A stretch of DNA of 49,103 bases, filler included, from Jimgerdemannia flammicorona (taxonomy: Eukaryota): NCBI GenBank assembly GCA_003990765.1. It is 2 parts of 2 records of this genome, joined end to end, with 100 filler letters (N's around TTAATTAATTAA, not from the genome) between each part and the next. Parts side by side here need not be neighbours in the genome. Positions count along the whole stretch, not along the records: positions 24,609 to 49,103 come from RBNJ01000969.1; 1 more part is not named here. One strand, 5' to 3'. Under the pieces are notes generated by a model. That model worked only from the letters and a program-made list of their open reading frames with translations, had not been told where the DNA came from and did no database searches. Positions within the stretch are counted from its first letter, which is position 1. The number at the start of each line of letters is the position of its first letter. A program made the position numbers and the translations under genes. Below, piece after piece: positions 11,991 through 48,653 of the stretch.

Positions 11991-12673
11991 ATGACAATAG
12001 TTATAGCTCTTATAATAAACATAAATATAGCCAAGAGATTGATCTTAATCTTTAATAATAAAGATTATGCTATTTGAATATTTTATATGAGCAATCTTCT
12101 AAAAGAGTGTAGTTTGGTAAAATATATAAAACCATAAGTACAGATTCAAGATTATAATACTAAAAAATTGTCTTTATATTATTAAACTAGAAAATGAAGC
12201 TTATAATATATACTATAATAGTTTATAATATATAGAAGACTTTATACAATTATTATATATAAGTATCCTCATCAAATCAGTTCTATCTGAAATCTTAGCT
12301 ATTTAATTTATAAATAAAGCCTAAGAAGAGTATTTGTGAATATATCAGTTATATTGATAATCTGATAAATCAAGTAAATTTCCTAAGTATATCAACAGAG
12401 TGTATCAGTAATGAAGATAAGGTTCTGATCCTTATAAGAAACCTTACTGAGACATATAATATTATAGTAATAGCTATATATGAGAGCAGAAAACTTATAG
12501 ACTATACTTATATAATAACAAGTCTTATTAATAAAGAGATGTGTCAAGGAAACAATAATAATAATAATGAGAAAGTATTCTACAGATTATATAGATGAGG
12601 TAAGAAGTATCAATAAGGTCAAAAATATGAAAAGTTTGATATAAACTACTATTACTATAATAAGTATAGATAT
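11991..12673 (+). pseudogene. gag: Copia gag relic, interrupted in its zinc knuckle by element C
   Basis: FNNKDYAI*IFYMSNLL…SICEYISYIDNL…ISNEDKVLILIRNL…NYYYYNKYRY (a CxxCxxxxH knuckle after G>A damage). Confidence 0.75.
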
Positions 12674-14175
12674 TGTTATATAGTGGTCACTGAGTCCTTC
12701 AAATATACCAGATTCTCTTCAAGGTATATCTCTTAGACTAACTCAAGTTTGTTATAAGCAAGTTCTTATTAGAGTATCTTCCCAAGGTCTTATAGTCCTC
12801 AAACTTCTTATCTTTTAAACTATCTTGTTATCTCTTAGATTACTTGTAAGGAAGTGTGTATATTGCACTGAGTAGAACTGACTTTATTTCAGAGAAAATA
12901 AGAGGGGTATTTATACAAAATATAATTCAATGGTTGCTAAGATATAAAGCTAAATATAAATTTCAATAACTAAAATAAAATGCCAGGATAGGAAAAACTA
13001 CTAAGTTCTAGGGTCAGTACTGATGGTTGTACAGGTTCAGAATGCTGGTATAATTCAGTATTACATCAAAATACCAGTGCTGGCATTATTTAGTGTTACA
13101 TCAGAATGCCAGTGCTGATATTATTTAGTATTACCAAGAGACTTAGAGCAGAATGTTCAGGACTATAGGGGCTTCATCATCAGAGGTCTATGAATTCATC
13201 ATCATTACATAGATTGCGTGTTTCATATATATCATGCAAGATGACATCATTGCCGATGATGTCATCATATTCAGTGGCAGGAAAATCAGAAACAAGAAGA
13301 TCTAGAGCTCTCTAGTCTATGAGGTTCTCTTCCACAAAATAGGGAACAAATGTGGGGTCTTAGGGAGGTCTAACCTGGATACTTGGGTCTTGGAATACTG
13401 AGATCAATCCTTGCAGGAATTGGTCTGGGTTATCCTAAAGGATGGGATGCCAGAAGTCTTCTACTTTATCACTATTGAGGGTAATAATGGACTGGGCTTC
13501 TGTAGCCACCCTGACTTCTAGTATATTGATATGGTGGGATGACAGATCTCTGAAATCTGAGACTCTAACATACTCTAAGTTGGGGATTGACTATGGTATA
13601 TGCCTGAAGATCTGATAGATCTTTTTAGCTATCCTTACCTCATGTATATCCATGGGAGTGGCATCTTGTAGCTCTTGGGGGCTGGCCTATAGAAACTCCC
13701 AGCAGAGGAGGTTTCCTATTTCATACTCCTACCATATTTGGAGGCATTCAGTAGTAATGATAATCCTCACAGTGGTAGAGGATATAGTGATAGGGGTCAC
13801 CAGTACTCAGGTTGATATTAGGAGTTCTTCTTGAGCAGATCCTCATGGCTCTTCTGATGTCTTAGAACATCCTCTCTTCGACTGAGATACCTTGGTGGTT
13901 TCTTGATCTTGAGGTTTAGTGAGCAGCAGGTATTTTGTTTGTGGTAAGTCTTTGAGCTATTTTGGAATTGGTGGGTCTTGTTGGTTGCTGCTACTGCAGT
14001 TCCTTGATCCTTCTTTTATATTCCTCAAGATGCTTATACTATGGTCACAATGACTCACAGTTGGTCATCATTGCTCATCTTGTATACTATATGATCTTCT
14101 TGTGCTTCAATCTGATGGCTTGCAAGAAAAGACTATCTCCTGTGCTGATGTCATCATTCTGGAGTCACCATTATA
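12674..14175 (-). repeat. 3' LTR of element C
   Basis: Collinear with 19879-21403 apart from transitions and small indels. Confidence 0.93.
13047..13133. repeat. About 2.5 copies of a 35-bp tandem repeat in the C LTR (also near 20238-20325)
   Basis: Unit approximately tggtattattcagtgttacatcagaatgccagtac. Confidence 0.75.
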
Positions 14176-19822: not shown

Positions 19823-19878
19823 TTTTCAGCTTGAAAGTGAGGAATTCATCTTAAATCACCAGCCAATAGGTACCAAGT

Positions 19879-21403
19879 TGTCATATAGTAGTTGCTGAGT
19901 CCTTTAAATATGTCAGATTCTCTTCAAGGTATATCTCTTAGACTAACAAGCAAGTTCTTATTGGAGTGCCTTCCCAAGGTCTTATAGTTCTCAAACTTCT
20001 TATCTTTTAAACTATCTTATTATCTCTTAGATTGCTTACAAAAAAGTGTATGTATTATACTGAGTAGAACTGACTTTATTTCAGAGAAAATAAGGGAGGT
20101 ATTTATACAAAATATAATTCAATAGTTGCTAAGATATAAAGCTAAATATGAATTCCAATAACTAAAATAAAATACCAGGACAGGAAAAACTACTAAGTTC
20201 CAGGGTCAGTACTAATGGTTGTACAGGTTCAGGATGCTGGTATAATTCAGTATTATATCAGAATGCTGGTACTGGTATTATTCAGTGTTACATCAGAATG
20301 CCAGTACTGGTATTATTCAGTATTACCAAGAGACTTAGAGCAGAATGTTCAGGACTATGGGGGCTTCATCATCAGAGGTCAGGATGTCTTCAAAGGAGAT
20401 AAGGTCTGTGAATTTGTCATCATTATGTAGGTCGTGCATTTTGTATATATCATACAGGATGACATCATTGCTGATGATATCATCACATTTGGTAGTAGGG
20501 AAATTGGGAACAAGGAGATCTGGAGCTCTCCAGTCTATGAAATTCTCTTCCACAAAATAGAAAACAAATGTGGGATCTTAGGGAGGTCTAATCTGGATGC
20601 TTGGGCCTTGGAATACTGAGATCAATCTTACAGGAATTGGTCTGGGTTGTCCTGAAGGATGGGATGCCAAAAGTCTTCTACTTCATCACTATTGAGAGTG
20701 ATAGTGGACTGGGCTTCTGTAGCCACCCTGGCTTCTAGTGCATTGATATGGTAGAATGATAGGTCTCTGAAATCTGAGACTCTAACATACTCCAAGTTGG
20801 AGATTGACTATGGTGCATGCCTGAATATCTGATGGATCTTTTTAGCTGTCCTTACCTCATATATATTCATGAGAGTGGTATCTTGTAGCTCTTGGGGGCT
20901 GGCCTATGGAAACTCCCAGCAGAGAAGGTTTCCTATTTCATACTCCTACCACATTTGGAGGTATTCAGTAGCAATAGTGATCCTTGTTTCCATTTTATAG
21001 CAGTAGAGGATATAGTGATAGAGGTTACCAATACCTAGGTTGACACTAGAAGTCCTTCTTAAGTGGGTTCTCATGGCTCTTCTGATGTTTTGGAACATCC
21101 TCTCTTCAACTGAGATGTCTTAGTAGTTCCTTAACCTTGAGATTTGGTAAGCAGCAGGTATTTTGTTTGTGGTAAGTCTTTGAGCTATTTTGAGATTGAT
21201 GGGTCTTATTGGTTACTGTTACTACAGTTTCTTGATCCTTCTTTTATATTCCTCAGAATGCTTATACTATAGTCACAATGACTCACAGTTGGTTATTATT
21301 ACTCATCTCATATACTATATGATCTTTTTGTACTTTGATCTGGTGGCTTACAAGGAAAGACTGTCTTCTGTGCTGATGTCATCATTCTGGGGTCACTATT
21401 ACA
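19879..21403 (-). repeat. 5' LTR of element C
   Basis: TG…CA termini; matches 12674-14175. Confidence 0.93.
20335..21300 (-). pseudogene. Decayed accessory ORF embedded in the C LTR (second copy at ~13140-14070); homologue of ORF3 of element D
   Basis: …EYEIGNLL…VRTAKKIHQIFRHAP*SISNLEYVRVSDFRDLS… followed by an acidic tail; start codon uncertain. Confidence 0.65.
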
Positions 21404-24927: not shown

Positions 24928-25066
24928 ACAGACCAAGTGTCTTCCATACCAGAAGCAAATTTTATTCAAGCAAACAGCTCCAGGAAATTACATTTTTTTT
25001 TTTTATAGTCTCTTGGACTCTGTCTTTATTACCAGTCTATGAATAAGTATACAATAACACCACCCC

Positions 25067-28000
25067 CTACCCTATCCCCATCGGGGGACCCCTCCCTACC
25101 TCTTCACATATAAAGACCACCCTCTCACCAATAACTCCAACTCTCCCACCACTCTGACCACAGATTTTCACCACCAAGCAGTATCTCTGACCCCCCTGCA
25201 GCCCTCAACCAAGCCACCAGCCTGTCAAGGTATCCTCTATAAGGCACTGCCACCATGATAACTGGCTCCCCAAGCTCTGTCACCTCCTCTCCTCAAATAC
25301 AAATAGCCAGTGACTGGTCAGCCCAACCCAAATAGCCAATGCTCAGCCTAGAGTAATCCACTCCTCCCCTACCCCTCCTATCAATCAATCCCTTAGATCC
25401 TCCCACCTCCCCCATACATCATCACCCCTACGCCTTATCCCCAAGCGGTCTCCAATGGCCCGCCAAAAGTCACTCAACACCTTATACTCCCCAAGCCAAT
25501 ATTCTGGCATCTGTACAAATCCCCCTTCCTGTCCTACATTATGATACTCCTTGCAGTCAAAGCAGCCCTCTACAACAAGGTGTCCTGAGCGGAAGTTAAG
25601 CATCACATTCCTCCTCAGCACATGCCACCAGACCACCCAGTACTTCGGCGGCATCCAATTTTTCACCATGGCACTCTAGGTCCAAACCCCCTACTAGTCT
25701 CACTCCTCACCAATTCTGACTTCTTACCAACCACTAGGCCACAGATCCTGGCCTGGTCCCCTTTGGCATTTGATTCTATCACCAATGTTGAACTCCAGTA
25801 AAGGCATGCCTCTCAGAAGAATGCCATCCCATTTCCACATTGCCAGGCTCCAGCCCTCTCCCCCTCATCCCCTTGCTAGCGAATACCAATGCGGTGTGCC
25901 CCCTTAGCTATCCCTCATCAGAAGCCTTTATATCACAGTTGCCCAGTATTCTGAAGCCCAACTAATGAAAGAAGATCACCAGTTAAGCCTCTTGGTGATG
26001 TCTGCCTCTCCCATACCTTCTGCAGCAGGGGAACCCAGCCCCCTCCATACAACTCCACCACCCTCCTAAGCCACCATGCCCTCAAACAGTGTAGTCTTTT
26101 GGGGAAGTCCACCAGCCCAAGACCACCTCTCACCACTGGTAGGGACAGCATCTCCCAACCAATCTGACTCTGTCTGCCAGCCCAAATCCATCCCTTGGCC
26201 ACCTTCACTAATCACTTCACCACCTAGGCTGGGAAGTCCAGATGATAAGCCAAATACCACAGTTTCGGCAGCCAGTATACATTCAAAATCGAGACCCTTC
26301 CCGCCAGAGAGAAATGTCTTCCCCCCCAATCCTGCAAGTCCTCCTCCCAAATTTCAATCCTCTGCTCCCATCACAGCCTGGGCAGAACAGACCCATAGAC
26401 TGACAAATATATGCCCAAGTACCACACTGTCTCTCTGGTGGGGACAATTGTTCCAATAACCTCTCCGCCCACCAGTCTATTGCCCAGCATCATTGTTTCG
26501 CACTTGTGCCAATTCAGCTTTGCCCCAGAGTTCTCCTCATACCACTCCACCGTCTTCTTGAGCTCCTTGACATCCGCAGTTACTCCCAAACCAACCACTA
26601 TGTCATCTGCAAAGGCTCCAACTTTCCAGCCAATTCCATAGATAGAAAGCCCCACAATTCTCCACTGAATACAGTCCATTAGAGGCTCCAAGGAAAGTGC
26701 ATACAAAATGGGGGACAGTGGGTCCCCCTAGGGCACTCCCCTACCCAGAGGGAATGCTACCCCTCTATGCCCATTACACATGAGCGCAGCCCTACTCCTT
26801 TCCAGTAGGCTGACCATCGCCACCTGAAATGGGACCAGAACCCCAATCCTATCCAACACTTTCACCAGCCAGACTTACTGCACCTGATCATAAGCCTTCT
26901 CCTAGTCCAAAAAGACAAGACACCCATCCAGTCCACAGGCTTGAGCACCTTCAATAACTCCATGTATCCAGGCTGTGCCATCTCGAATAAGCCAACCCCC
27001 TATGAAGCCCCTCTGCTCAATACCCACAATTTGCTGGGCCACCTTCTGCAGCCTTGCAACCACCACCTTAGTCACCAACTTTCTGTCCATATCTAGCAAC
27101 ATTATCAGCTGCCAGTTCTTCCAATCCTCTCACCTTCCCTTGTTCTTATAAAGCAGTGTCACCAGCCCAAGATCCTGCTCCCCCACCCATCTCTCTGACT
27201 GCAATATGGAGTCACACAGCACTGTCAACTCTCCCAATATGCCTGGGACTCCAACCATTCGCTTCCAGAAGTCCCAGGGGAGGCCATCCTCCCCAGGCGC
27301 CATACCCGAGGCTGTCGTGGCAAGAACCTGGTAGATCTCATCCTCCTTTATAGGCATCACCAGGTCATCTAATCCCTCAGCTCATAGAGGGTACCAATCT
27401 TCTAATATTTGATCAATGGCTGTAGCATTCGCCCCACCCTCCTTCTCACTCCACAATCCACTCCATCGTGCCTTCAGCATTCCAAGGATATCCTGTACAC
27501 CATGCACTAGTCTACCATCTGAGTCAAGTACCCCTTCCCACCACTGCTGTACCCTCCTCACTCGAAGTGTCCTCATAAGAAACTTGGAAGGCCTCTCCCC
27601 TTCCTCCAGCCCCTGCCAACGAAGCTGTGCCACTAGGTCTTGCACCCTTGACTCTTCCTCTTCCTACAGCACCTGTTGTAGTTCCCCAATCTCCATCTTT
27701 ACCCTTGTTATTCTCCAATCCTCTTCTCCCTCCACTACTGCCAGACTCGCCCACTCCTCCAGAAGCCTAGCCAATCTAGTAGAAGCCCAATGCACTCTCT
27801 GCCTTTGCTGCCTCCCAGCCACTCTGCCAGCCTCACTCCAATACATCCTGGCCATCTCTTTCATTCTCCTCCACCAAACCCCAATTGTGACCCCTTCCTA
27901 CCACCAATTTACCACCTTCATCTGAATGTCTTTTGCCCACTCCTCCCACCAGAACTCGTCATTCAACAAGGAGGAATTCAGGTGCCAATGTCCAGGCCCA

Positions 28001-28712
28001 TCACCACTTCCCCCAAAACACCCCTGTCCCAAAAGGCCCCAGTGATCAGACCATGGACACCATTCTACCTCTAGCACCTTCCAAACATCACGGCCCCAAC
28101 AGTTGGCTGTCAGAATCCAGTCAATTCTTGTCCCCAGACCTCCAGCCCAATGCATATATACCCTCCTGTCCCCCCAGTACTCCCTACCAGCATCCACCAG
28201 CACTCCTAGCCTTTCGACCTCCTCCCATATCACCAGCCCCCCACTCCTGCTCTCAGCACCCCATCCTCCATCAGTTCTATCCAGCCATACATCCTGAACC
28301 ATATTGAAATCTTCTCTAAGTATATCCAACCCAGCTTCAGCAAGGATCCCACTCTCCAGGACCAATCCACATGCTCCCCCCACACAGCAGGGCAGTAATA
28401 GGAGCCAACTGTAACTGGCTCCCAACCTGCACGAATCCACTCACCCCAGACCAGTCTCTCTCCCCAGCTCCTCACATTCTGTATCTCCCCTCTGCCTTTC
28501 CGAACCAGAATCCCAACCTTGCTGTTCCAAATTACCATGCCACCCCATTCCTTAGTCCATTCCATTCTAACAGAATCATCCTCACACCTGACATTCTGCA
28601 AGAGAAAGAGATCGGCCTCCAATCCCTTCAACCAAATAAAAATGTTCCTGTATCTAACTGCACCCCTTAGCCCATTTATGTTCAAAGAAAAAATGTTGGT
28701 TGTACTATTCAT
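25067..28712 (-). pseudogene. LINE-2 ORF2 (APE endonuclease and RT)
   Basis: MNSTTNIFSLNINGLRG, RIDWIL, WSDH, APGEDGLP, AFADD; ends PMGIG*. Confidence 0.95.
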
Positions 28713-28742
28713 AATGAAATATTGTTTGTTTGCAATCAATCT

Positions 28743-30772
28743 CTACTGCTCCATGCCCATCTCCTCCTGTGCCATGTCCAGATTATGTTCAGCCATCACC
28801 TCCTCCTCTTCAGTCCTCTGAGCCTCCAGTCTAGCCAACAGCTCATTCATCTCCTCATCAGCCTTCTCCTCAAACTCCTCTCTGTACTCGATGCAAGCCT
28901 CCTGCCAAAGCTACAACCCATGACACCTGTTCCAACAGTACTCAGCCTTCTCCCCAGTGACAACCACCAACTCTGCCTCCCTCTCCTTGTCCACCTCATA
29001 CCCTTCCTCCTCCAGATACACTGTGAGAATTTCTGCCTTCAGTGCCATCGCCACTCCTTCCCCTTGCAAAATTCTCGCCCAGTGCTCGTCACCCATCCCA
29101 CACAAGTCCACCTCCCCCAGCTCTTCTGCCACCAGGTTGTTCATCATCCGGCACATCCAAAGTAGGTTCCCCACCTCCTTCCCACCTGGGGTTGCCGGCC
29201 TCCCTCCATCCAGCATCGTGGTGTTAGCTCCAGCACTTGCATCCTCATCCCATATCTCCGGGACATCCACCAGTTCCTCCTCCCCAGCCACCACTACCTG
29301 GTCTCCATCCATTACCTCCAAAATGCTGAATTTCACCTGCTGGGTCCCCAGCATCATCACATCCTCCCCAGATTTGTTCCTGGAAGCCGGGCCATGCCTG
29401 ATAAGAGGGGAAGGGGTGGGGGAGTTCTCCCAGACTTCCTCCCAAACCTCCAAGGTGCCATCTACATATGGGTCGCTAATTGTCACCTCTTTTGCCTTCT
29501 CTGTCTTTGCCCCATCATTCTCACTCCTCTCACCAGCCCAGACACTCGCTCCAGCCCCTTCTGTACCTGTCTTCATGCTCATATCCTTCTGTAGTCCACT
29601 CCTCAGTTTAGCCAGCAGATCCTTCTGCCTCTTCCACCTCTGAGCCCTTTCCCACTGCACCTTGTCTACTCGAATCCTCTTTCCATCCACTACCTCCAGA
29701 TGTGTCAACTCCTTGAAAGTCTTCCAGACCTTGGCACACTGTTCCACAGCCCCATCCAGCTCCTTCAGCACTTCCAATAAATCCTCCTCCTCTTCTTCAC
29801 TTCCCTTCACCCATGTCACCTTGTACAGGAATGCACCCCAAACCATCGCTGAAGGCCAGTCCCTCATCTTCCCAGTAGTCTCTTTTCCAGCCAGCCAAAT
29901 CCTCACATCCATGTCCCTAGTCCTGAGTGTGGTCCCTTCCCAGACCCTGAATCCGATATCCACCACCTCACTATACTCCACCATGACATCCTTCACTCTC
30001 TTCCTCGTCTCCATCACCATCACTGTGGGGACCCCTTTCACCAGCAGTTGGACCACCCTCGGATCCCATTTCAAACACCTTGCCATCAGAACATACACCT
30101 CCCCAACCACCAACCTCACCCTCAGTGTCTCCTCCAGCGGTTCGACCTCCTCAAAACCCACTTCCACCCCCTCCAGTCCCTTCAGGAACTTCACTGAAGC
30201 TGCTCCAGCCACCTGCTTAGCGATAAGCCCCAATACCATTTACACTGTCACCACTAAGCCCCGGAAATACAGTGTGACTGCAAATGCCAAGATCGACTTC
30301 TTGAGTAACGGAGCCACCACCAGTCCCATTACACCATCTGCCAGGTCCCCAGGCCTCGTGCCTTCCCACCACTCAGCTCACCATCAGCAGTCCCATCTAG
30401 ATTTTTTTCCAGATCGCCCATCACACCCCCATCAGCAGTCTCTGCCCCAGCTGCTACCCCCCCAGCTCCACCCCTATAGCCCTCCAGAGAGGTACCCCCA
30501 AGAGGTTGCTGCCTGGTAGCCTTCACCGGTACCTTCCCCCCTTGCAGCCAGCTCTCCAGTCCAGCCCCTTGCTGACCCCCCTTCACCTTCTCTACAAAGC
30601 TCACCCTGCCAGACCCTTGACCTCCAGCTCTACCCCCTCCTCCACCATGGCCTCCTGCCAGCAGGCCCCTCATACTTCCCCCCAAGCTGAGGCCTCTCCC
30701 CACTTGTTGCCATTCAAATGCTCCAGGGCCACCCTGCCTAGTATGCACCTCTGGATGCTCATTGGTCACCAT
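28743..30772 (-). pseudogene. LINE-2 ORF1 (frameshifted)
   Basis: A 442-aa open segment collinear with LINE-1 ORF1. Confidence 0.88.
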
Positions 30773-30866
30773 AATACTAGTAGCTTTTCTTCAGAAACTG
30801 TGTCGAAAGTGTTGCCAAAGATTGTGTAACCTGAATGTTACTGGAGAAAGATTGCTCCAGGAAATT

Positions 30867-33800
30867 CCAAAACCCCAATATATATACACAGCCATACTCA
30901 AGTCAAATAAAATAGCTCTTATCACTTTAAAGAGAATGATAGGCAAAGAAAAACTCTCATCAAAGTACATCATGGTAGATAGGACCTAGTTCTCTCAGAT
31001 GAGATGAGTAGAGAACTTATATATAAGGTGAGAGGAGACCCCCAATACTCCACTACTCAAGCCTGCAGGCCTCAATCACATTACCATATCAGCTTCTAGT
31101 TTCAGTTGAGTAGCCAAGATGCCTGAAATAGATAGCCTCAGGCTCCCTGACAATATGGTGAGCTCTATTATACTAGAATCTTCTATAGCACATCATCTGA
31201 CTTCTCTCTAAAGCTACTAGAGAGAGGAGATCCCCAGTCATACCATGGGGGGAGAACTAGGCCCCCCACACTCTCTGCATGAGTGGAACTCACTCACTAC
31301 CTCTCAACTCACTAGTATACTTCAACTACTATGCTTTCAAGCAATGAAGCTACTTGAAAAAATCCACAAAACCCAGGCCTCCCTAGTCTACTGGTAAGGT
31401 CAATATCTCTCAGCCAATCTGACTTTATCACCCTACTCATATCTAGGTTCTAGCCATCTTTAATAATCTTTTGACCACTCATACTAGAAAGTCCAAGTAG
31501 TATCCCAGCTACCATAGCTTAGATATCTAGTATATATTCAGCACAGTCACCCTCTCTACTAGAGATATATATCAATCACCCCACCCCAAGAGAGTACTCT
31601 CCCACTCTACCAACTACTGCTCCTACTATCTGTAAGATAATAAGAAGCCATATATTAAAAAGTAGATTCCCAGGTAGTAAACAGCCTCTCCTGCAGAAAC
31701 AATTATTCCAATTACATCTCTATCTACTATTTCTTCTCCTAACACCAAGGTCTCATACTTATGCCAGTTGAGCTTAGTACCTAAGCATTCCTCATACTAC
31801 TCTACTACCACTATCAGTACTGCCACATTTGCTACTGACCCCAATCTAACTACCTTATTATCAGCAAAGACCCCCACCTTTCAATTAACCCTCAGAATGT
31901 CCAACTTTCTCACCTTTTGTCTTATTTAATCCAAAAGAGACTTTAGAGACAACATATATAGAATTAGTGACAATAGATCCCTCTGTGGCACTCTTCTACC
32001 CAGAGAGAATAAAACCCCCCTATACTCATTTATTATGATTGCTACCTAACTCTCTTCCAGCAGACCAACCAAGGTCTGCCAAACCCCAGGAGGGACTTTT
32101 ATATGCTTTAGCACCTCTTCCAACCACACTTACTAGACCCTATTATAGATCTTCTCTTGATCTAAGAAAACTAGCCTTTCATCTACTCTAGCAGTATGAG
32201 TACTCTCAATAATACTATATATCCAAGCTATCCTATCTTTGATAAGACATCTCTCTATGAATCCTCTCTGCTCAGCTTCCAGAACCCTCTGAGCCACTCT
32301 CTGTAGACTAGCCACTAGTATCTTTATAATTAGTTTGCAATCCAAGCCAGAAGTATGATCAGTCTCTAGTTTTTCCACTTCTTTCTCCTTCTCTTATTCT
32401 TGAACAACAGAGTCACAAGATCCAAGCACTGCTCCCCAATCCATGTCCCTGAGCTAATAACTTCATTGCATATTACTAACATTTCCTCCAGAATCAGCTT
32501 AACACCTTCTATCTTCTTTCAAAAATCCCATAATAAGCTATCTTTCTCAGGAGTTATCCCTGAGCTCATAGTTATCAGTATCCACCAAATCTCCTTCCCT
32601 TAGACAGCAGTACCAAGGTCATCCAAGCCTGCTGCCAGATCAGAGTATCAGTTCTCTAAGTATCTATCAATATCCAGCACTCCCATCCCTCCTTTCTCCT
32701 TATTCTACAATTGTCTCTACTATATACTCAACTGGTCCAAAATCTCCAGAGTACCAATAACCAACTCCCCCACCTCATCCAATATCCTCTCGTATTACTG
32801 CTGTACTCTTCTCATCTATAGAAGGTAAGATAAATACTTTATAGACCTCTCTCTCTCCTCTAGTTCCTATTATCTCAGCTGGACTACTATGTCTTATATC
32901 TGTAGGTCCTCCTTCTATCTCAGCAATCTCTTCAACTCCTCCACCTCCAGCCAGACCTACTGGGCCCTCCAATCTCACTCCTTACCCTTATTCAGCAGAT
33001 CTACCTATGTCACCAGCAACCTCACTAATCTCTAGGAGGCCTACCTCACTCACTTCCTCCTGTAAGTACCATACATCCTTCCAGCCTCTCTTTAGTACTA
33101 TTGTACATCTGATTTCAACTACCTCTAGTGATCCCTAATTAGCAATTTTGCTATTCTCTATCTCAGTATCCTGGTTCTAATGTCTATTACTTATATATCC
33201 TATAAGGAGGTCTTTCTAAACAATAAGATATACAGGTACTAATATCCAGGCCCCTTCCCACTATCCCCAAAACTCCCCTCTCTCAGAAGGCCCCAGTGAT
33301 CAGACCACAGATACCAAACAGTTTCCAAAGATTTTCAGATATTGACTCTCCAGCATTCAGTAGTTAATATCCAGTCAATCCTTAAGCTTAACTCTGCCAC
33401 CCAGTAAGTATAGATTCTATAATCTCCCTATCTAAGTCTCCTAGCATCTACTAAGGAACTCAGATATTTGACTTCCTCTCAGGCTTCTATCCTACTACTT
33501 CTACTAGCCATCACCCTTTCCCTATCAGTCCTATCCACCTTCCTATCTCATATTATGTAAAAGTTATCACTTAGATAGTCAATCTCTATCTCTCCCAATA
33601 CTCCAGATTCCCATAGCCCTTGGATCTATTCTACCCTCTCTTTTCTTTCTGTTGGACAATAATATGATCTAATAGTCAAGAGACTCCAGCCTGACCTCTT
33701 TTAAACTCTCCACACTATCCTACTTTCTCAATGTCCAATATCTCTAATATCTCTCTTGCTTTTTCTAACCAGAATACCTATACACCCCTATCAAATAGCC

Positions 33801-36000
33801 TCACTATCCTACTTCTTTATTTAGTCTAGGCTATCCAAGTCTCTATTATATCTAATATTCTGTAGTAGGAATAAATCTACATCTAGTCCCTTTAGCCAGC
33901 CAAAGATATTTCAACATCTCTCTACACCCTATAGCCTATTGACATTTAAAGAGAAAATTCTAGTTATACTGTTTATATTGAATAATATATTTTCATAGAG
34001 AGCAGCTGTCTACTCTATAATTTCATACTTACTATATCACTTGCAATATCCAGATTCCTCTCTGTCTCTAGCTCATCTGCCTCTCCCTGCTGAGTCTCCA
34101 ATATCTCTAAGATCTCCTAATAATCAGTACCATCTACTGCTTCTATATCTGTCCAGTACTCCTTACATACCATCTGCTATTTCACCAGTCCCTTCCTTGA
34201 GCCTAACAAGTATACAGCCCTTTTGTTTACAATTACTAGAAGTATAGTCTCTCTGATATCATTTACTTAATACATCTCAGCCTCTAGCAAGACAACTATT
34301 ATATCACTCCTGAGTTTCTGTGGCATCTTCTCATCTTACAGGATTTCACTCCAGTATCTCTTACTTAGCACCTGAAAGTCCTCTCCCCCCAGCTCCTTAG
34401 CTATCATATTTATTAATATTTTCCACAGCCACTTCTCTTCATCCACAGCCTCCTTTACTCTCTGGACTACTCCTTTCCCCCCTTCCATCTACCCTCTCTC
34501 TACATTCATCTTAGCTAACTTATTTCAATCCTCCTCCAGTATATCCTACAATTTGTCATCTCTTCCAGCTTCTACTGGTACTCTATACTGAGTGTACTCC
34601 TTCTTACTCATCTTTTTATCTTCTATAATAACACTCTGTCCTGTGCCTCTACTCTTCTCCAGGGTGGTCTTGAGTACTGCTCCTTTCTCCTCTGCTCAGA
34701 TACTTATCCTTAATCCAACTTCTCTAGTAGCAGTCTTCCCCTCTGCCCCTCCACCCAACTTTGCCAACAGCTTCTTCTGAATATACCTCCTCTGTACCCT
34801 CTTCCAGACTGTCTGATCCAGCTATACCTTTTTGCCATTTATGATCTCCACTACTGTCTTGGCCTCAAATTTCTTCCAGGCTGATCTCTGTCTCTCAACA
34901 GCCCCCACCAGATCCTCCAGTACCTCTAGTAAGTCCTCTCTTTCCTCCAGTGTTCCTTTCACTCTTGAGACCTTGCACTCTACTGATCTCCACTTGAGAA
35001 CTGCTGGCCAGTCTCTTGCTTTCTCTGTATTATCCTTGTCTACCAGCTGTACTCTTATATCTATATCTCCTATCCTGTACTCTATGTCTTTTCAGACCTA
35101 AAACCCAATATCTACAATATCTCTATACTTCTTGATTACCTCTACAATCAACCCCTTGACTCTCTCCTTTGATACTATAGGAACATCCAGTACTATTAGT
35201 TATACAACTTGAGAATTCCAGTACAAATGCCTAGTTATAAGGACTGCTACCCCCTCCCTATTACTACTCCCTTCTCCATTGCTTCCAGCAGTATCTCCTC
35301 CTTCTTGAAGTCTACCTCTATCCCTTTCTGACCCTTCAAAAACTTCACTGAGGCTGCTCCTTTTACCTCTTGAACCAGTAGTCCTAGAATCATCCTCATA
35401 ATCACTACTAGGCCCTAGAAGTATAATGTGATGGCAAATTCTAATCTTAATTTTTTAAGTAATAGTGCTGCCACCAGGCCCATTATATTATCTACCAGAT
35501 CTCTGGGCCTCATGCTCACCCTTTGTCCAGATCTACCATTATCTATCATATCTAGATTTTTTGCCAGATTGGCAGTCTTCTTATCATCAGCAGTCCTACT
35601 TCCCCTAGCCACTATTTCCCCAGCCCTACTGCTCTCACTATCAAGAGCCACTTCACCCAACCCTATAGCTCTCACTATCTCTTTACCTTTCCTCAACCAG
35701 TTCTCTAATTCAGTCAATAGATATTCCTCCTTCATCTTGTCAGCAAAGCTCATCCTCCTAGTCCTCTATCTCTTTATAATGCTCCCTTCTCTTTTATATC
35801 CTCTAGTCAGCAGATCCTGTATACTTCCCTCTATATCATGACTTCTCCCCACATACTACTAGTTAAATACACTAGGGCCACTCTGCCCAACATATATCTC
35901 AGAGTACTCATCAGTTGCTATGTTGCTAGTATCTATTCTCCAAAAATAATATCTTGAGTATTATCAGAAGTTTGAATAACCTGAATATTATAAGTATAGT
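30867..36000 (-). mobile_element. Body of LINE-3 (older, more decayed relative of LINE-1/2): ORF1 ~34000-35920, ORF2 from ~33976
   Basis: FSLNVN, WSDH, LVFLDQEKIYNRV, VFADN and GGLGFVDF motifs; 5' end resembles that of LINE-2. Confidence 0.9.
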
Positions 36001-39960: not shown

Positions 39961-40045
39961 TACTAATTCATATAAATAATAAAGAATAAATTATTTTTAA
40001 TAGAGTTTTTCTAGAAAAATATAGTTTCAGTGAATCAAGAGATAA

Positions 40046-40475
40046 GAAAATCAGTAGAGAGAGTATACAGAATTTGTAGCCCTCTATCTGCTGTAAGAAG
40101 TAACTCCAAATAGCTAAAAGAAAAAAAAATAAAAAAATGAAAAATCAGTAAAAAGAGTATGTAGAATTTGTAGCTCTCTATTTACTATAAAGAGTAACCC
40201 TAAGTAGTTGAAAGAAAAAAAAGAAAAAAAGAAAAATTGGCAAAGTGAGTATATAGAATTTATAGTTCTTTATCTACTATGAAAAGTAACTCTAAGTAAC
40301 CAGAAGATAAAAGGAAAAAAAGAAGATTGGCAAAGAGAGCATATAGAATTTGTAGTTCTTTACCTACTATAAGAAGTAACTCTAAGTAGTCAGAAGGTAA
40401 AAGAAGAATTAGCAGAGGAAGTATACAGAATTTATAGCCCTCTACCTACTATAAAGAGCAACTCTAAGTAGTTAA
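40046..40475. repeat. Five-copy tandem repeat of ~82-94 bp with A-rich spacers
   Basis: Core approximately gagagtatacagaatttgtagccctctatctactataagaagtaactctaagtag. Confidence 0.85.
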
Positions 40476-40896
40476 AATCCAGTATAGTTTCAGATTTTAC
40501 AGATATTCTGATCCTATATAGAAGTACTATGAGTACTCTATAGCAGAGTTAAGGAACTGATAGAGCCCAGCAAAAAGACTAAACTAATACTAAAAAAAAT
40601 ATGTCCATACTGTCTACCTCTTATAAAACTATTCCACTTACTAGTTCTAGATTATAATAGGTCTGTTATCTATTATAAGTATAATAATAGTTATGTCTAA
40701 GCTCTCTTTAAAGGCAATAGTACTATGGAGATTATGCAGCTAGAATAAGACTACTATATTGGCTATAAATAGAACCCTGAAGCCATAAGAGAGATTATAC
40801 TAGATATCTCTACTGCTCTCTTAAGTAGAGTCCTTTCTATATATCTAGAATATAAAATATTACCAGAGTAATATTGTTATTTATATGTATATATAG

Positions 40897-41362
40897 TGTA
40901 ACATAGCAGATGCTTACTCTTGAAAGTACATTGGACTTCTATATCTTGAAAACTTGATCTTCTCTGACTCCTCAGAGTCCTTTGAGTTGCAGGGGAGGGT
41001 AGGTGAGTTTGAAGTATATCTGCCTGCAGGCTTACTAGTTCCTTTGCTATCTTTTTGCTTTGAACTATTTTGATCTGAGGTTTATTTACTCAAAGATACT
41101 GGGTTATTTATATAAGTTTGCTAGTTATGAGATGGTCACTGGGTTATGTGGCTAAGTTATGAGTCATTTAACACTTTGCAAAATATTTTGCTAGTTGTGA
41201 AATGCTATACTATATTGAGAAGCTCGATCTTGCACTTTGTGAAATATTTAGCAAATGGCAGAATCGAGGACTGCTAACTATGTGGCTATACTACTTTGGG
41301 ACTGGATGCAATCAAGTGTCTATTCTCTATTTCCTTCTTCCAAATATGGCTATACCATCACA
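40897..41362 (-). repeat. 3' LTR of element D
   Basis: TG…CA termini; about 92% identical to 47143-47608 by manual alignment. Confidence 0.95.
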
Positions 41363-41861
41363 ACTTCCTTTTGAATAGATGATCTCGTCCCTGAAGTATC
41401 TATTCAAACTTCCAAGCTTCAATGGTCTGTATGGTCTTGTATTATGTGATTTGTTGCATTACTGTTTCCCAATAGTGTCACCTGACTCGGTTGAAGTCTG
41501 AGGGAGTCACTCCTTGCAGGTGGGCTAGTGCTGGTTCATCTTCTCAGAATAGCTTGTGGATTCTCTTAGCAATAGTGATCTAGGAATAAGAGAGCTGGCA
41601 TTCTGCAATCCAATTTTCTTTGGTCATTTCTGGGTCTTGGTTGAGTACTTGGCCAAGTTTTAAGTACTCTTGGAATTCATTTCAATGCTGATAGGCCTTG
41701 AAGTGTGAGATCTGAGAGAGATGAGTCTGTATGATGCTTTGGATACTATCATAAAACTCCTCTATGGTCGGAGACTCAGTGGTGTACCATTGTCTCTCGA
41801 TGGCTCTTTGGGCAGTGCTAGTGATCTTGAGTGCCATTGCAGTACTTTTGTTACTGGCCAT
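41358..41861 (-). pseudogene. ORF3 of element D, unknown accessory protein (~165 aa, in-frame stops)
   Basis: ATG overlaps the last pol codons; MASNKSTAMALKIT…EYLKLGQVL…IAKRIHKLF*EDEPALAHLQGVTPSDFNRV…; homologous to the ORF in the C LTR. Confidence 0.7.
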
Positions 41862-44800
41862 GATATTTTTTAAGTCAGTTTCGGTGAATGGTGGTGGGGA
41901 TTATTGTGCCTGAGAGTTTTCGTAGCTAAAAGGTGGTCTCTTTTATATCTTGTATCAGGTAAGGTCCTTCCCACTTGGACTCCAGTTTTCGTAACCATGA
42001 AGCTTCTACCATATTTCGATACACCAGGACTTTGTCTCCAATCTTGATAATCTCCAAGGGTTTGTGGGTCTTTTCTGCATTCTTCCATTGTAGTATCTGC
42101 ACCTTGGTTATATAATCCTCAGCCTTCTTCCTGATTTGGTATAGTCTCCATATTTCCATATCCACATGTTTCCATACAGCATCTCTATTGAATGATAGGG
42201 TTCCCTGAGAACATTTTTCTCCAAACAGCATTTCTTGAGGAGTAAAGTGGGTACTTTGTGATCGGATATCCTGGAGAGCAGATAATGCTATTGGCAGATA
42301 GTGATTCCAGTTCTTGTAGTTATCACAGATCTTGGCAATAATATTCTTGAGGGTTTTGTTAGTCCTTTCTACTTGTCCGTTTTCTTGAGGATAATATGCT
42401 ATGGTCCAGATATACTGGATCTTGTACTTTTTGTAGAGAACTTCGAAAAACTGGTTCACAAATTCTGTTCCTCTATCTGTAGTTACTTGTGTTGGGGTCT
42501 TGAACCAGCAGATGATTTCTTTGTGGAAGAAATTGGCAATTGACTGTGCATTGGCTTCCATAAGGGGTCCTGCTTCTATCCATTTTGTAAAAAGGTCTAT
42601 GATGATGATGATGTATCAGTTGCCAGTCAAAATCAAGGGTAGAGGACCAATTACATTCATTGCAATGTGGGCAAATGATACTGGTTCTATGTGTGCTGAT
42701 CCTGGGGCTTGATTTCATTAGTCTTGTTTCCATTTCTGGTATTTGTTACAGGTCTTGACAAATTGTCTGATATCTTCCTCCATCCCTGGCCACTATATTA
42801 TTCTTCTTGCCTTGTCATATATATTCATTTCTCCTAGATGGCCAAGTTCATATACTGATTTCATTGCTTGCTCCTTCTTGTGTTCTGGTATAACTAGTAG
42901 TTTTCCTTTTTTCAGTATTTCTCCATCAGTTTCGAATTGTTTCCATATTCTGTTGATAATCGTTTGTGTCCATTCTTTCAGATATTGGGGCATCTTTTGC
43001 TGTCCCAGATATGTGATAATTCTGTAGTAGAGCTCCTTATTCATGATTGATTTGTTGGTTAGAGATAGTTCGGGGTGTCTGTAAGAGGGCATCTGCATTG
43101 GAATTTGTTCTTCCAGGGCAGTATACAATGGTTACATCATAGGTTTGTAGCTTCATTATCTATCTGATATAGATTCCTTTGGGTTGTCCAGTTATCAGTA
43201 GCTAGGTGAGAGCTGAGTGGTCCATCTGGATGGTGAAGTGTCTTCTGGCCAGATAGTAGTGGAACTTTTCCACAGCCCAGATGACTGCAAGGCATTCTAA
43301 CTTATAGGACTCATATTCTTTTTCAGCCCCTCGGGTTCTGCAGCTAAGATATGCAATGACATACTCTTTTTTGTCTTCTTTTTGAGCTAGGACCGCTCCT
43401 AGTCCCTGTGCACTTACATCTATCTGAAGGATAAATTCTTAGGTCCAATTGAGTCATCTGAGGATGGGTGCCTGAGTTAGTCTGATCTTGAGTTCATCAA
43501 ATGCTTTTTGTTGTCTGCCAGTCTACTGGAACTTGGTATCCTTCTTGTTGAGTTCATAGATTAGACCTACAATGTTGAAGAATCCTCTAATGAATCTGTG
43601 ATAGTAAGAGGCAAGTCCCATGAAGGCTTGAGCTTCTGTGATGGTAGTGGGCCTTGGGTATGCTGCTACCACTTATATCTTGAGGGGGTCTGTGTGTGTT
43701 CTATCTCGATTGATAATATGGCCAAGATAAGAGATCTCAATTTCTGCAAACTTGTACTTCTTGGGTTTGATATAAAGGTCATGTTGTCTTAGTCTCTCTA
43801 TTATCTGCTGTATGTGCTGCAGATGTTCCTCAGGTGTCTTGCTGTAGATGATTACATCATCAACATAGACCATCATCTATCTTCCTATATCATAGCAGAA
43901 GATTTTGTTCATCATTCACTGGAAGCTTGCTGGTGCATTGCATATTCTGAATGGTATTCGTAGGTAGATGTAGGTTCCATCTGGGGTGATGAAGGCTGAC
44001 TTTTCACTTGCCATCTCTGTGAGTCTGATTTGGTGAAATCCTGAGTATAAGTCCAAGGTGCTGTAGTACTGTACTTCATCTCCCAGTGTTATAAGGATGT
44101 TACTGATGAGTGGCAGTAGTTGGCGATCCTTCTTGGTAACTGCATTAAGCTTTCTGTAGTTGACACAGAGCCTTGGGGTGAATTCTCCAGGTTTGCTTCC
44201 TTTTTTCGGGGCTAGTACAACTGATGAAGACCAGGGGCTGCTGGATTCTTTGATGATACCAGCTTCTTCTATCTGCTTGATTTCTTCTCTGAGCCATTCT
44301 TGGTAGGCTGGTGGGACAGGTCTTGCCTTCTGGTAAATTGGTTCGGTGTCTCCAGTATCTACCTCATGATAGTAGTGTGGAGTCTTTTCCTTGATATTCT
44401 TGAAATCTGTGGCGAGAATATCCTCGAATTTGTGGAGTATTTTCTTAAGTTTCTCTTTGAGTGGGAATTCGTCTCCAATGGTGTAACTGTGCTTGCTTGT
44501 GTTTTCCTCCTTCTTATGCTCGAGTTCAGTAATCTTGGTACTGGTGAATACTCCTTTTCCTATAGATTCAAATCCTTTCTTTTCTCTTTTCGTTTCCTCC
44601 AGCTTCTTAACTTCTATGATCTTTAGTTGTAGGATTGGAAAGATCAACATTTGCACCAATCAGTCCTTCTTCTTGACTGGAAATGGGATTATAGGATTGT
44701 GATTCCTAGAAATGAGTAGAATTTCTCCAGTATAGTCTAAATTGATGACTCCTCCTTCAATTGTGATTTTGCTTCTAGCCAGACTGCTTCTTGTCTTGAG

Positions 44801-47142: not shown

Positions 47143-47608
47143 TGTAATGTAGCGGATGCTTACTCTTGAAAGTACATCGGACTTCTGTATCTTGAAAACT
47201 TGATCTTCTCTGACTCCTCGGAGTCCTTTGAGTTGCAGGGGAGGGTGGATGAGTTCAAAGTGTATCTGCTTGCAGGCTTACTAGTTCCTTTATTATCTTT
47301 TTGCTTTGAACTATTTCAATCTGAGGTTTATTCACTCGAAGATACTGGGTTATTTATATAAGTTTGCTAGCTATGAGATGGTTACTGGGTTATGTGGCTA
47401 AGTTATGAGTCATTTAACACTTTGCAAAATATTTTGCCAGTTGCAAAATACTATACTATATTGAGAAGCTCAATCTCGTACTTTGTAAAATATTTAGCAA
47501 ATGGCAAAATTAAGGACTGCTAACTATGTGGCTATACTACTTTGGGACTAGGTGTGATCAAGTGTCTATTCCCTATTTCCTTCTTCCAAATCTGGCTATA
47601 CCATCACA
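47143..47608 (-). repeat. 5' LTR of element D
   Basis: Matches 40897-41362. Confidence 0.95.
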
Positions 47609-48329
47609 ATAGATAGAGAAATATTATATCTGATATATTCTAATATAACATAAATATAGTTGTGTAAACTCTTGGCCCAGAACCTCATACTGTTAGATAG
47701 TACTGAAGAAGACTTACTTTTTATTAAGCTTCAGGAGTTCTGACTTAGATATTTACTAAAACAGATCAATATCTGGTCAATTCTTCTATTTTACAAGCAA
47801 CTCTCTCTCTGTTATACAAATAGTCAAGTACTTACTTATCTTATATAGTATACTGAATTATACTAAGAATATATATATATATAACTATACTGAGAATACT
47901 ACCAAGCTAGTCTGCTGTTTATTCTAGAAATCTGCTCAAAGATCTCTAGATCATTATTACTATCATTATATTGACTATATTATACTTATATGTAACTTGC
48001 TTTTTGATTTTACTTTTGAAATTTCAGTAAGAGTATAGTATTTTATATATCTCTGAATATTTTTAATAAAATTGATTAATTTTTTCCAAAAGTCATCAAG
48101 TGTAGGAAATTTGGAAAAATCAAGAAACCCACTCTTTGTCAATATTGCCATATATCTAATTTCCATCCAAACATCTCCTTCTTACTTATTATACTACCTT
48201 TTCTCTACTACTTAATATTTGATAATATAATGACAAAGTTCTTCACTATAGAGGCTTCTTACTACTATTATAACTAGTGCTCCGCAAATCCGACCCGATT
48301 AACCCGAAACCCGACCCGTAAAACAGCCA

Positions 48330-48517
48330 ACCCGGAATTAGACATCACCCGTCTTTAACCCAACCCGGAATTATACGTCACCCATCTTTAACCCGACCTG
48401 GAATTATACATCACCCGTCTTTAACCCGACCCAGAATTGTACGTCACCCGTCTTTAACCCGACCCGGAATAATACGTCACCCATCTTTAACCCGATCTGG
48501 AAATGTATGTCACCCAA
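48330..48517. repeat. 33-bp subterminal tandem repeat, about 5.7 copies
   Basis: Unit acccggaattatacgtcacccgtctttaacccg. Confidence 0.9.
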
Positions 48518-48653
48518 CCCGTTATTTACCCTTAACCCAAACCTGAACCCGACCCCTGAACCCGACCCTGAACCCGACCCCTGAACCCAACCCTGAACCC
48601 GACCCTCTGAACTCTGCTCTAAAAAAATGATTCGGAAAATATTTGGATAATAT

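Follow-up and report, generated by a model that had tools for sequence, protein, structure and literature searches.

A selected third gene after pol in a Ty3/Gypsy lineage of Jimgerdemannia flammicorona, with a distant homologue inside the LTRs of a sister family

In a 49,103-nt stretch of DNA from the genome of Jimgerdemannia flammicorona (the window), a reading frame interrupted by stop codons opens at the very end of pol in one Gypsy element, element D. Is this frame, ORF3, what is left of a gene, does a second element in the window, element C, carry a homologue of it, and what might its product do? Here, we argue that ORF3 represents a real accessory gene that is maintained by selection and is homologous in the families of both elements, a reading drawn from sequence comparison to which we assign a probability of about 85%. 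We also outline what the product may look like and propose, much more tentatively, how it may act.

The ORF3 frame of element D and its open relatives

Element D, on the minus strand, is bounded by a 5′ LTR at 47143-47608 and a 3′ LTR at 40897-41362 (466 nt, TG...CA, in which TATAAATA and AATAAA stand at positions 251 and 277), and the two LTRs are 92% identical across 467 nt. The 5′ LTR is followed by a primer-binding region common to element C and to L001, a near-intact relative from a metagenome. Directly upstream of the 3′ LTR is the polypurine tract (PPT), whose purine run, AAAAGGAAG, occupies 41364-41372 and is, as read from the sequence, homologous to CAGGAGGAAG in L001 and element C. 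The C-terminal part of the pol (integrase) frame spans 41851-42615 and finishes ...KKYHGQ*, with its stop at 41853-41851. As the preliminary description of this locus had recognized, an ATG overlapping these last codons opens a further frame: it lies at 41861-41859 on the minus strand, in the +1 frame relative to pol and 8 nt ahead of the pol stop (ATGGCCAGTAA), and the encoded protein begins MASNKST.... With LTRs, primer-binding site and PPT all present, ORF3 stands in the env position, right after pol and overlapping it, and L001 has an identical layout around ORF3.

Translation places stops at codons 60 (TGA), 94 (TAG), 106 (TGA), 128 (TGA), 140 (TAA) and 154 (TAG) of the frame. Because open homologues finish ...EAWEFE at the last of these points, we take codon 154 as the natural stop; ORF3 of element D therefore comprises 153 codons plus its TAG (41861-41400), and it carries five internal nonsense codons and no indels. 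The in-frame stops noted earlier are thus present, and the frame does run without a frameshift, as had been stated, but it is shorter than the roughly 165 codons up to the PPT that had been given, since it ends 27 nt ahead of the purine run (41372-41364) and 37 nt ahead of the LTR.

Open relatives of this frame exist, within a very narrow family. In the D-type search, five of eight candidates were significant (E 6e-74 to 8e-48, 67-78% identity) and have open frames, and cluster members supplied two further homologues, P0011 (153 aa) and P0015. P0005, P0011 and P0022 are each 153 aa long and share their end point with ORF3 of element D, and at least eight independent open homologues share its start methionine. 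A phmmer search of 1.84 billion representatives found only three real D-type clusters, a fourth match, P0018, being taken as spurious (a 550-aa tandem-repeat protein matched over a single 29-residue stretch). A metagenome scan confirmed one of 364 pattern matches, L001, and a scan of viral contigs confirmed none of 35. By Pfam, L001 encodes gag, PR, dUTPase, RT, RNase H and IN, the integrase matching both rve and Integrase_H2C2, and its ORF3 is open, in a position equal to that in element D, with an ATG in good initiation context (ACCATGG). The pol of this Ty3/Gypsy lineage carries its dUTPase between protease and RT, gives no chromodomain match in Pfam and terminates about 40 residues beyond the GPY motif. 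Intact relatives have, in the +1 frame, a 153-codon ORF3 whose ATG overlaps the final 8-44 nt of pol and whose stop lies about 35-50 nt ahead of the LTR. The sequencing runs listed as containing the element include no RNA run; two DNA-type runs (small shares, 0.10 and 0.05) yield contigs with many related short pieces, which differ from the window mostly by A>G and T>C, and the indels listed for the ORF3 region are two that compensate each other, at 41679/41684, both from a single contig.

ORF3 of element D and that of L001 differ at 138 of 462 nt (30% divergence) with no indels, and the differences fall 38/26/74 on the three codon positions, the third dominating. For this one DNA pair, of which one member is a dead copy, NG86 gives a dN/dS of 0.143 in the ORF3 frame (bootstrap range 0.07-0.28, 435 of 500 replicates finite) and of 0.89 and 1.61 when the sequence is read in the two alternative frames, values that are only rough because dS is near saturation (pS 0.66); integrase, compared between the same two elements, gives 0.103. 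These comparisons show purifying selection on ORF3 about as strong as that on integrase, for a single DNA pair.

The LTR pair of element D differs by 36 transitions and 1 transversion and that of element C by 170 transitions and 1 transversion, with a CpA bias in each (21/36 and 107/170). Measured against the codons of P0005, the changes behind all five nonsense codons of element D are consistent with C>T; measured against L001, which has CGA, CAG, AAG, AGA and CAG at these sites, a single C>T change suffices for three of them, and the other two require multiple changes. The residue guessed earlier at codon 106, R, agrees with P0005, whereas L001 has K there.

Could ORF3 nevertheless be no gene at all, with the frame arising by accident from a 3′ region that is conserved but non-coding, such as a cis-acting RNA element? 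The five internal stops in the window copy would fit such a reading, as would the fact that no family, fold or RNA-level support was found. We consider it scarcely credible in the face of at least eight independent open homologues with the same start methionine, of differences concentrated at third positions (74, against 38 and 26), of a dN/dS of 0.14 confined to the ORF3 frame, and of 462 nt without an indel at 30% divergence. Comparison with its relatives instead shows 41861-41400 to be a mutated copy of a genuine third gene of a Ty3/Gypsy lineage. The view put forward in the preliminary description, of a family-specific, protein-coding accessory ORF whose window copy was broken by point mutations, is upheld.

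A homologue inside the LTRs of element C

Element C, also on the minus strand, has a 5′ LTR at 19878-21403 (1526 nt, with TATAAATA at LTR position 1297 and AATAAA at 1324) and a 3′ LTR at 12673-14175 (1503 nt), the latter preceded by the PPT (CAGGAGGAAGA) and a 377-nt spacer after pol. An ORF3 homologue had been reported in this element; the homologue is real, but it lies inside both LTRs and not in the interval between pol and LTR, and neither tblastn nor inspection by eye found an ORF3 remnant in the 377-nt spacer. The C-type search yielded 6 significant candidates out of 56, with open frames of 271, 247 and 215 aa among them, and by tblastn these homologues map onto both LTRs of element C: onto 20338-21161 in the 5′ LTR (queries P0023 and P0026; LTR positions ~243-1066 of 1526) and onto 13183-13933 in the 3′ LTR (residues 1-248 of P0023). 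The stretch that matches ORF3 of element D is found at 20945-20780 and again at 13728-13563, within the two LTRs. Both window copies of the C-type ORF have ATA as their first codon; the 5′ copy has one frameshift near 20625 and several nonsense codons, and the 3′ copy has one frameshift near 13768 plus nonsense codons. At the stop in ...RHAP*SI..., which had been guessed to replace Q, the homologues have W. Since the gene lies inside the LTR, element C holds two copies of it.

The TATA and poly(A) motifs show equal spacing and equal distance to the LTR end in element D, L001 and element C, and because these positions match we place the C-type ORF in U3, upstream of the TATA box, a putative boundary that is derived from motif positions and not from mapped transcript ends. 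The C-type gene has in addition a TATAAA of its own, at LTR position 156 and 87 nt upstream of its start codon. The PPT adjoins LTR position 1, and of the two genes only that of the C-type sits past this tract, within U3; given this location, both genes would be found 3′ of pol on genomic RNA. A simple shift of the PPT was rejected as the route by which the ORF came to lie in the LTR: homology between C and D extends from about 45 nt ahead of the PPT through the tract itself and into the first bases of the LTR. Alignment of the D LTR with the parts of the C LTR that flank the ORF did not rise above shuffles.

Homology between the two types is visible at the protein level. The preliminary description had seen little DNA similarity between C and D in this region, and blastn finds none past the end of pol; ORF3 proteins of the two families are 19-26% identical, against 67% DNA identity in pol. 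When profiles of open homologues were aligned with hhalign, the D-type profile being built without the window sequence, the score was 38.4 (E 2.7e-5) over 113 collinear columns. One hundred column shuffles gave a mean of 13.1 (sd 2.3, maximum 24.2), about 11 sd below the real score, while 100 local-block shuffles reached at most 24.6 and reversed profiles 21. None of the 200 shuffles attained the real score, so that the protein-level conservation claimed earlier stands, including against the shuffled controls by which it was to be judged. A tblastn search with the D-type protein P0005 gave a match in the 5′ LTR of element C, at 21164-20721 (E 5e-4) and in the C-type frame.

These results bear on another possibility, that the LTR ORF of element C is a real gene unrelated to D-type ORF3, with motifs that are convergent or shared by chance. 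When D and C alone are compared pairwise by BLASTP, the match is marginal (E 3e-4 to 6e-4, one comparison), the hhalign probability is just 74-80%, from shallow profiles (Neff about 1.4) and with two long insertions in the alignment, and the two genes differ in length and in position relative to the PPT and have no common DNA similarity. We nonetheless regard independent origins as unlikely, given a profile score that stands so far above its shuffled and reversed controls, an alignment that stays collinear across its 113 columns, and an independent tblastn match in which an open D-type protein lands on the same LTR stretch and in the same frame; each gene is, moreover, the 3′-most ORF on the RNA of sister elements. 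As judged by these alignments, the family of element C is shown to have a distant ORF3 homologue, of 215-271 aa, past the PPT and inside the LTR.

The predicted product and its possible roles

Domain and fold searches of the ORF3 proteins returned little. In Pfam, the D frame of the window gave only Cactin_mid (E 0.11), and PF09039 (HTH_Tnp_Mu_2) appeared in two of the ten A2 homologues at sub-threshold level (E 0.031 and 0.11; bit scores of 14.8 and 13, where 20.5 was required). Pfam includes models for Sag and Nef, and a Pfam-A hmmscan of P0023, P0026, P0003 and P0004 matched no family, hence neither of these. PDB sequence-profile searches returned one chance-level match for the D-type protein (L-asparaginase, E 0.27) and none for the C-type, and the already described retroelement domain that the preliminary description had allowed for was found neither there nor in Pfam. 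The ESM Atlas offered unnamed bacterial and phage clusters only, nothing usable. The AF2 model of the D-type protein has seven helices and a mean pLDDT of 57 (70-77 over residues 31-100); against the PDB, Foldseek matched it at best to a generic helical bundle (E 0.68), and a wide VIA-align search likewise ended at a generic helical bundle, the HRSV M2-1 core, with a best Z of 5.9 that is below the meaningful level for helical proteins. The C-type model, with a mean pLDDT of 37, was too poor for a fold search.

The highest 19-residue Kyte-Doolittle mean is 0.19-0.74 in four homologues, which contain no hydrophobic stretch, in agreement with the earlier observation that ORF3 has no signal peptide or transmembrane segment. 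Because it lacks a transmembrane segment ORF3 is not an env, and an envelope glycoprotein is further rejected on the absence of an env Pfam family, the length of 153 aa and the all-helical model. Origin by duplication of gag-pol was likewise rejected, BLASTP of P0005 and P0023 against the L001 polyprotein giving E 2.3 or worse. We infer that the ORF3 product is a soluble, all-helical, intracellular protein, to which the C-type would add a head rich in arginine and a tail that is long and acidic: C-type proteins have a pI of 4.1-4.6, with a 20-residue window of net charge +6 near the arginine-rich N-terminus and windows of -5 to -9 toward the C-terminus, and the D-type is without the arginine-rich head.

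A symmetric dimer model scores 0.49 against 0.29 for the best control, a narrow margin of +0.20; its runs have at least 66% of contacts in common, with a partner pLDDT of at least 64. In calibration on proteins of solved structure, 21 of 30 one-chain pairs and none of 23 single chains attained the mark used for dimers (among eukaryotic proteins, 17 of 29 and 0 of 30), and eukaryotic proteins without a solved relative pass it more rarely (1 of 7). On this modeling, the ORF3 product is probably a symmetric dimer, held together by the helices that are most conserved (residues 40-76).

What might such a protein do? We propose, as a candidate role that we hold with considerable reserve, that it is a nuclear, dimeric regulator that would bind the LTR DNA or genomic RNA of its own element and raise element expression. 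It would act by transcriptional activation or by export or stabilization of unspliced RNA, in the manner of Tas, Rev or CERV. The D-type product would be expected from a spliced subgenomic mRNA, and the C-type product either from such an mRNA or from an LTR-internal promoter. The predicted dimer, together with the basic head and acidic tail of the C-type, gives a weak hint of a nuclear regulator; nucleic-acid binding is a putative part of the proposal.

Two other roles deserve consideration. ORF3 might serve as a cofactor of integration or of the particle, partnering integrase or Gag in the cytoplasm or at chromatin with no control of expression, and might for instance do in trans the targeting that a chromodomain does for chromoviruses. 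The end of pol about 40 residues after the GPY motif, with no chromodomain match, would suit this idea, as would the start of ORF3 inside the last integrase codons, and a dimeric helical adaptor would be compatible with the model. We think this role improbable, however: ORF3 is without similarity to gag-pol, no chromatin-reader or other known domain was found in Pfam, and the C-type gene is distant from integrase and encodes an acidic tail of the activator kind. The preliminary description had offered an anti-silencing factor as one example; a counter-defense factor of this kind would block repeat-directed mutation, methylation or RNA silencing. The host does mutate repeats heavily, as the transition excess in the LTR pairs attests, and ORF3 has diverged between families far more than pol has, which would fit an arms race; yet both window elements have been mutated to death regardless, selection within the family is purifying rather than diversifying, and no similarity to known silencing suppressors or methyltransferase inhibitors was found, and we judge a role in counter-defense quite unlikely. 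The nuclear regulator remains our working proposal.

Known systems and significance

MMTV sag, HIV nef and foamy-virus tas/bet are retroviral accessory genes in or overlapping U3. The C-type gene resembles them in its place past the PPT in U3, in sense orientation, and so in being carried twice in the DNA form, once per LTR, and 3′-terminally on the RNA; it differs in having no sequence similarity or Pfam family in common with them and in residing in a Ty3/Gypsy host without env. Like sag, the C-type ORF lies wholly within the LTR; unlike sag, it has a homologue outside the LTR in a sister family.

The D-type gene invites comparison with the ORFs of this kind that many LTR retrotransposons carry without known function (PMC10309623). 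CERV, from the C. elegans element Cer1, is described there as a nuclear protein, the product of a spliced mRNA, that is required for genomic RNA export (PMC10309623). As in Cer1, ORF3 occupies the env position, is not an envelope protein and has homologues only within a narrow group; it differs in being a 153-aa protein that starts at an ATG of its own, CERV being 517 aa long and taking its N-terminal half from an upstream exon (PMC10309623). The bdelloid rotifer elements Vesta, Juno and TelKA likewise pair a family-specific post-pol ORF with a dUTPase in the element, and their ORF3s are typically separate transcription units expressed via spliced messages (PMC5408684). The rotifer proteins are of env-like, GDSL esterase, DEDDy exonuclease, coiled-coil or TM types (PMC5408684), and by Pfam the ORF3 described here is none of these. 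Novikova et al. 2010 include fungal Gypsy elements, some with dUTPase, drawn with an 'add. ORF' of unknown function (PMC2864245); those elements differ in bearing a chromodomain, and the comparison is by description only. Our search of the open-access literature yielded context papers only, with no description of such a fungal Gypsy ORF3 or of an LTR-embedded retrotransposon ORF. ORF3 is a lineage-specific ORF3, of a kind already known, and its protein family matches none known.

Extra ORFs after pol are common in LTR retrotransposons and almost never explained, and here comparison shows that one of them is selected. TE annotation pipelines would miss both the D-type and the C-type gene, and the latter would be masked as 'LTR'. 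Sister families with the gene on opposite sides of the PPT provide a natural experiment on the placement of an accessory gene into U3, comparable to that seen in complex retroviruses. Should the product be a trans-acting regulator or a counter-defense factor, it would matter for the persistence of these elements in a genome whose repeats mutate with a strong transition bias. With the C-type comes a further question, whether a solo LTR can stay protein-coding. A bolder reading, which we regard as doubtful, is that one accessory gene changed PPT side between sister Gypsy families and that each C-type LTR, solo LTRs included, constitutes a self-contained gene for a trans-acting dimeric regulator. 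If this is true, MMTV sag or foamy-virus tas would find a counterpart in the C-type LTR of a fungal-type retrotransposon, and expression of the regulator could outlast loss of the element's internal region.

The third gene of element D and its relatives

Element D, on the minus strand, is a dead Ty3/Gypsy copy bounded by LTRs (40897-41362 and 47143-47608) that align without gaps and are 92% identical over 467 nt. Its pol ends in ...KKYHGQ* with a stop at 41853-41851, and the ATG of the third ORF after pol (ORF3; MASNKST...) lies at 41861 in the +1 frame, 8 nt upstream of that stop, overlapping the last pol codons as the preliminary description had it. That description also rightly noted in-frame stops, which a translation with X at stops places at codons 60, 94, 106, 128, 140 and 154, and the lack of a frameshift: the frame aligns without an indel over 462 nt to that of L001, a metagenome contig carrying a relative of D. 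The length first proposed, about 165 codons, did not hold. Three full-length homologues (P0005, P0011 and P0022) have 153 residues each and end in ...EAWEFE, so codon 154 is the natural stop, and by this comparison ORF3 of D is 41861-41400 on the minus strand. The purine run of the PPT follows at 41372-41364, and then the LTR TG at 41362. Tandem arrays lie on both sides of the element (40033-40480 and 48281-48544): a few hundred bases past the 3' LTR, five copies of about 90 nt each, and past the 5' LTR, six overlapping copies of a 33-nt unit.

The differences between the LTRs of a pair comprise 36 transitions and 1 transversion in D and 170 transitions and 1 transversion in element C, the second Gypsy element considered here, with a preference for CpA (21/36 and 107/170, respectively). 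This pattern resembles repeat-induced point mutation and shows what killed the D copy. Relative to the window, contigs from two public runs show mostly A>G and T>C changes; the window copy is therefore the mutated one.

Word-indexed searching of 5.8 billion proteins yielded eight candidate homologues of the D-type protein, five of them significant (E 6e-74 to 8e-48); all five are open frames, 67-78% identical to the query, and none contains a Pfam domain. Their clusters contribute P0011 (153 aa) and P0015. Scanning all 1.84 billion representatives with phmmer gave four matches at E <=1e-3. We take one of these, P0018, as spurious, a 550-residue tandem-repeat protein in which a single 29-residue stretch matches; the other three belong to the family, which is thus real but very narrow.

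In metagenomes, one of 364 pattern matches was confirmed: L001, a 6.5-kb contig carrying a near-intact element. A single frame of 1281 codons encodes zinc knuckle, protease, dUTPase, RT and RNase H by Pfam, followed by a Pfam-recognised integrase and an open ORF3 at 5795-6253, whose ATG stands in an ACCATGG context and overlaps pol by 44 nt; a PPT and the TG start of an LTR lie 3' of it. Positions 1-77 of the contig hold the last codons of a second ORF3 copy (...KTIQTIEAWEFE*), then a PPT, an LTR and the element proper. The two ORF3 tails differ in sequence, and the order points either to tandem elements with one LTR in common or to an assembly that circled back through the LTR.

Between D and L001, ORF3 carries 138 differences, distributed 38/26/74 over the codon positions. 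The other two frames have Nei-Gojobori dN/dS values of 0.89 and 1.61, whereas the ORF3 frame has 0.143, a value that comes from a single DNA pair, with pS at 0.66 and near saturation, and with D having additionally decayed neutrally after insertion. Bootstrapping gives a range of 0.07-0.28 (435 of 500 replicates finite), dropping the pol overlap gives 0.141, and the integrase of the same pair gives 0.103; uncorrected pN/pS is 0.30 for ORF3 versus 0.18 for integrase. At the five internal stops of D, L001 has CGA, CAG, AAG, AGA and CAG, and the residues found there in P0005 are R, Q, R, R and Q. A dN/dS below 1, which the preliminary description proposed to test for, is found in this pair, and codon-level divergence shows ORF3 to be an accessory gene under selection, located 3'-terminally on the element RNA. 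That the frame contains no gene at all is very improbable.

The C-type relative and its place in the LTR

Element C, also on the minus strand, has pol DNA 66.7% identical to that of D, and the similarity ends exactly where pol ends, in keeping with the little DNA similarity reported earlier for the third ORF. A homologue had been proposed in C, and a stretch matching the D ORF3 core does exist; it sits, however, inside both of the 1.5-kb, 86% identical LTRs (12673-14175 and 19878-21403), at 20945-20780 and 13728-13563. Searches gave two significant matches of 11 with the C frame and six of 56 with an open relative, including open frames of 271, 247 and 215 aa. Open relatives map onto both LTRs (21161-20338 and 13933-13183, minus strand), where a single frameshift and several nonsense codons interrupt each copy. 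Both copies open with ATA (21159-21161 and 13931-13933) in place of the Met of the C-type homologue P0023, reflecting either loss before insertion or a hit at the same CpA site in both copies. Tblastn and sequence inspection found no trace of ORF3 in the 377 nt between C pol and its PPT.

Pairwise BLASTP between the D and C proteins is marginal (E 3e-4 to 6e-4). Profile comparison by hhalign gives a probability of 80% and E 1.3e-5 when window sequences are included, and 74%, E 2.7e-5 and a score of 38.4 over 113 collinear columns when a window-free D-type profile is compared with C-type. The latter score exceeds all 200 shuffled controls (100 column shuffles, mean 13.1, sd 2.3, maximum 24.2; 100 shuffles within 8-column blocks, maximum 24.6), as well as reversed profiles (21), so the C/D alignment proposed earlier is significant. 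Tblastn with the open D-type P0005 gives an independent match in the C 5' LTR, in the same frame (E 5e-4). We consider it very likely that the two proteins are homologous, and similarity without homology correspondingly unlikely.

The PPT, the roughly 45 nt preceding it and the first LTR bases are alike in C, D and L001, and all their LTRs contain TATAAATA with AATAAA 26-27 nt further on, at a distance of about 215-230 nt from the LTR end. Because this pair (LTR position 251 in D and L001, 1297 in the C 5' LTR and 1261 in the C 3' LTR), the PPT and the LTR start match, the C LTR amounts to a D-like LTR enlarged in U3 by about 1 kb, of which the ORF takes 824 nt (LTR positions about 243-1066). 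Each ORF lies 3' of pol on the genomic RNA, with the PPT after the gene in D and before it in C. These alignments and motif positions show ORF3 to be outside the LTR in the D family and within U3 in its sister, the C family. Both C copies also carry a TATAAA(AG) 87 nt upstream of the ORF start, at LTR position 156 (minus strand, near 21248 and 14020), which may be a promoter within the LTR or may stand there by chance, such words being common in AT-rich mutated DNA.

The C-type gene within U3 has parallels in MMTV sag, HIV nef and foamy-virus tas. In the open-access literature searched, we found neither a Ty3/Gypsy retrotransposon whose U3 holds a conserved, complete ORF nor a prior description of the ORF3 protein family. 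Env-position ORFs of unknown function are a known kind (PMC10309623, PMC5408684), and fungal Gypsy elements have been drawn in one survey with an 'add. ORF', also of unknown function (PMC2864245), which may or may not belong to the present family.

Other elements of the window

A dUTPase lies between protease and RT in pol (Pfam E 3e-22 and 3e-28), at 17272-17679 on the minus strand of the window and at residues 648-775 of the 774-4619 frame of L001; Pfam finds no chromodomain in the L001 pol frames. In D, the dUTPase region is still recognisable by eye at its end, near 44600-44659. At 302-655 (plus strand), a fragment of a third Gypsy-like element carries a zinc-knuckle-like motif, CX2CX4HX4C, together with sequence similar to the dUTPase region start; it has no Pfam match at E 0.001 and stops where a LINE-like (non-LTR) element starts. 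The latter is present in two copies, at 2007-7101 (plus) and about 25000-31000 (minus), with endonuclease/exonuclease/phosphatase and RT domains, GC of about 0.5 versus 0.23-0.43 in surrounding DNA, and extreme GC skew (+0.30 to +0.52 on the sense strand in one, -0.38 to -0.53 in the other). A more decayed stretch at 31000-36000 shares this skew.

Predicted protein features and possible function

Neither D-type nor C-type ORF3 proteins match a Pfam family or, in these searches, a described retroelement domain, and a PDB sequence profile search gave a single chance-level match (E 0.27). A relation to gag-pol was also considered; sequence comparison found none. The proteins contain no hydrophobic segment, in agreement with the earlier report of no signal peptide or transmembrane segment, and the product is therefore not an envelope protein; we infer a soluble intracellular protein. 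AlphaFold2 with ten D-type sequences predicts seven helices (mean pLDDT 57; 70-77 over residues 31-100), and fold searches found generic helical matches only (Foldseek best E 0.68, VIA-align best Z 5.9). The C-type model is poor (pLDDT 37); these proteins have an arginine-rich head, a long acidic tail and a pI of 4.1-4.6.

Modelled as two copies, the D-type protein has a score of 0.49, and the best control has 0.29. Among proteins solved as pairs of one chain, 21 of 30 reach this mark, compared with 0 of 23 solved as single chains; the eukaryotic figures are 17 of 29 versus 0 of 30, with only 1 of 7 among those without an older solved relative. Runs share at least 66% of contacts with partner pLDDT of at least 64, and the modelled interface (residues 40-76 and 84-94) is the stretch holding most of the invariant columns. 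The model supports a dimer without proving it, and the D-type product probably forms one.

What might such a protein do? An integration or particle cofactor seems unlikely, and a counter-defence factor slightly more so; the weight that these and the role favored below leave over falls on other roles, none of them named. We favor, at a probability of roughly one in three, a nuclear regulator of the element's own expression, a proposal based on the basic head and the acidic tail seen in C-type proteins, on predicted self-association and on CERV, the one well-studied precedent. This env-position ORF of Cer1 lacks homologues and is required for genomic RNA export (PMC10309623). Spliced subgenomic mRNA is said to be typical of ORF3s (PMC5408684), and ORF3 may be expressed in this way, or for C-type alternatively from a promoter within the LTR. 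As a regulator, ORF3 would act through transcriptional activation at the LTR, or through export or stabilisation of the element's unspliced RNA.
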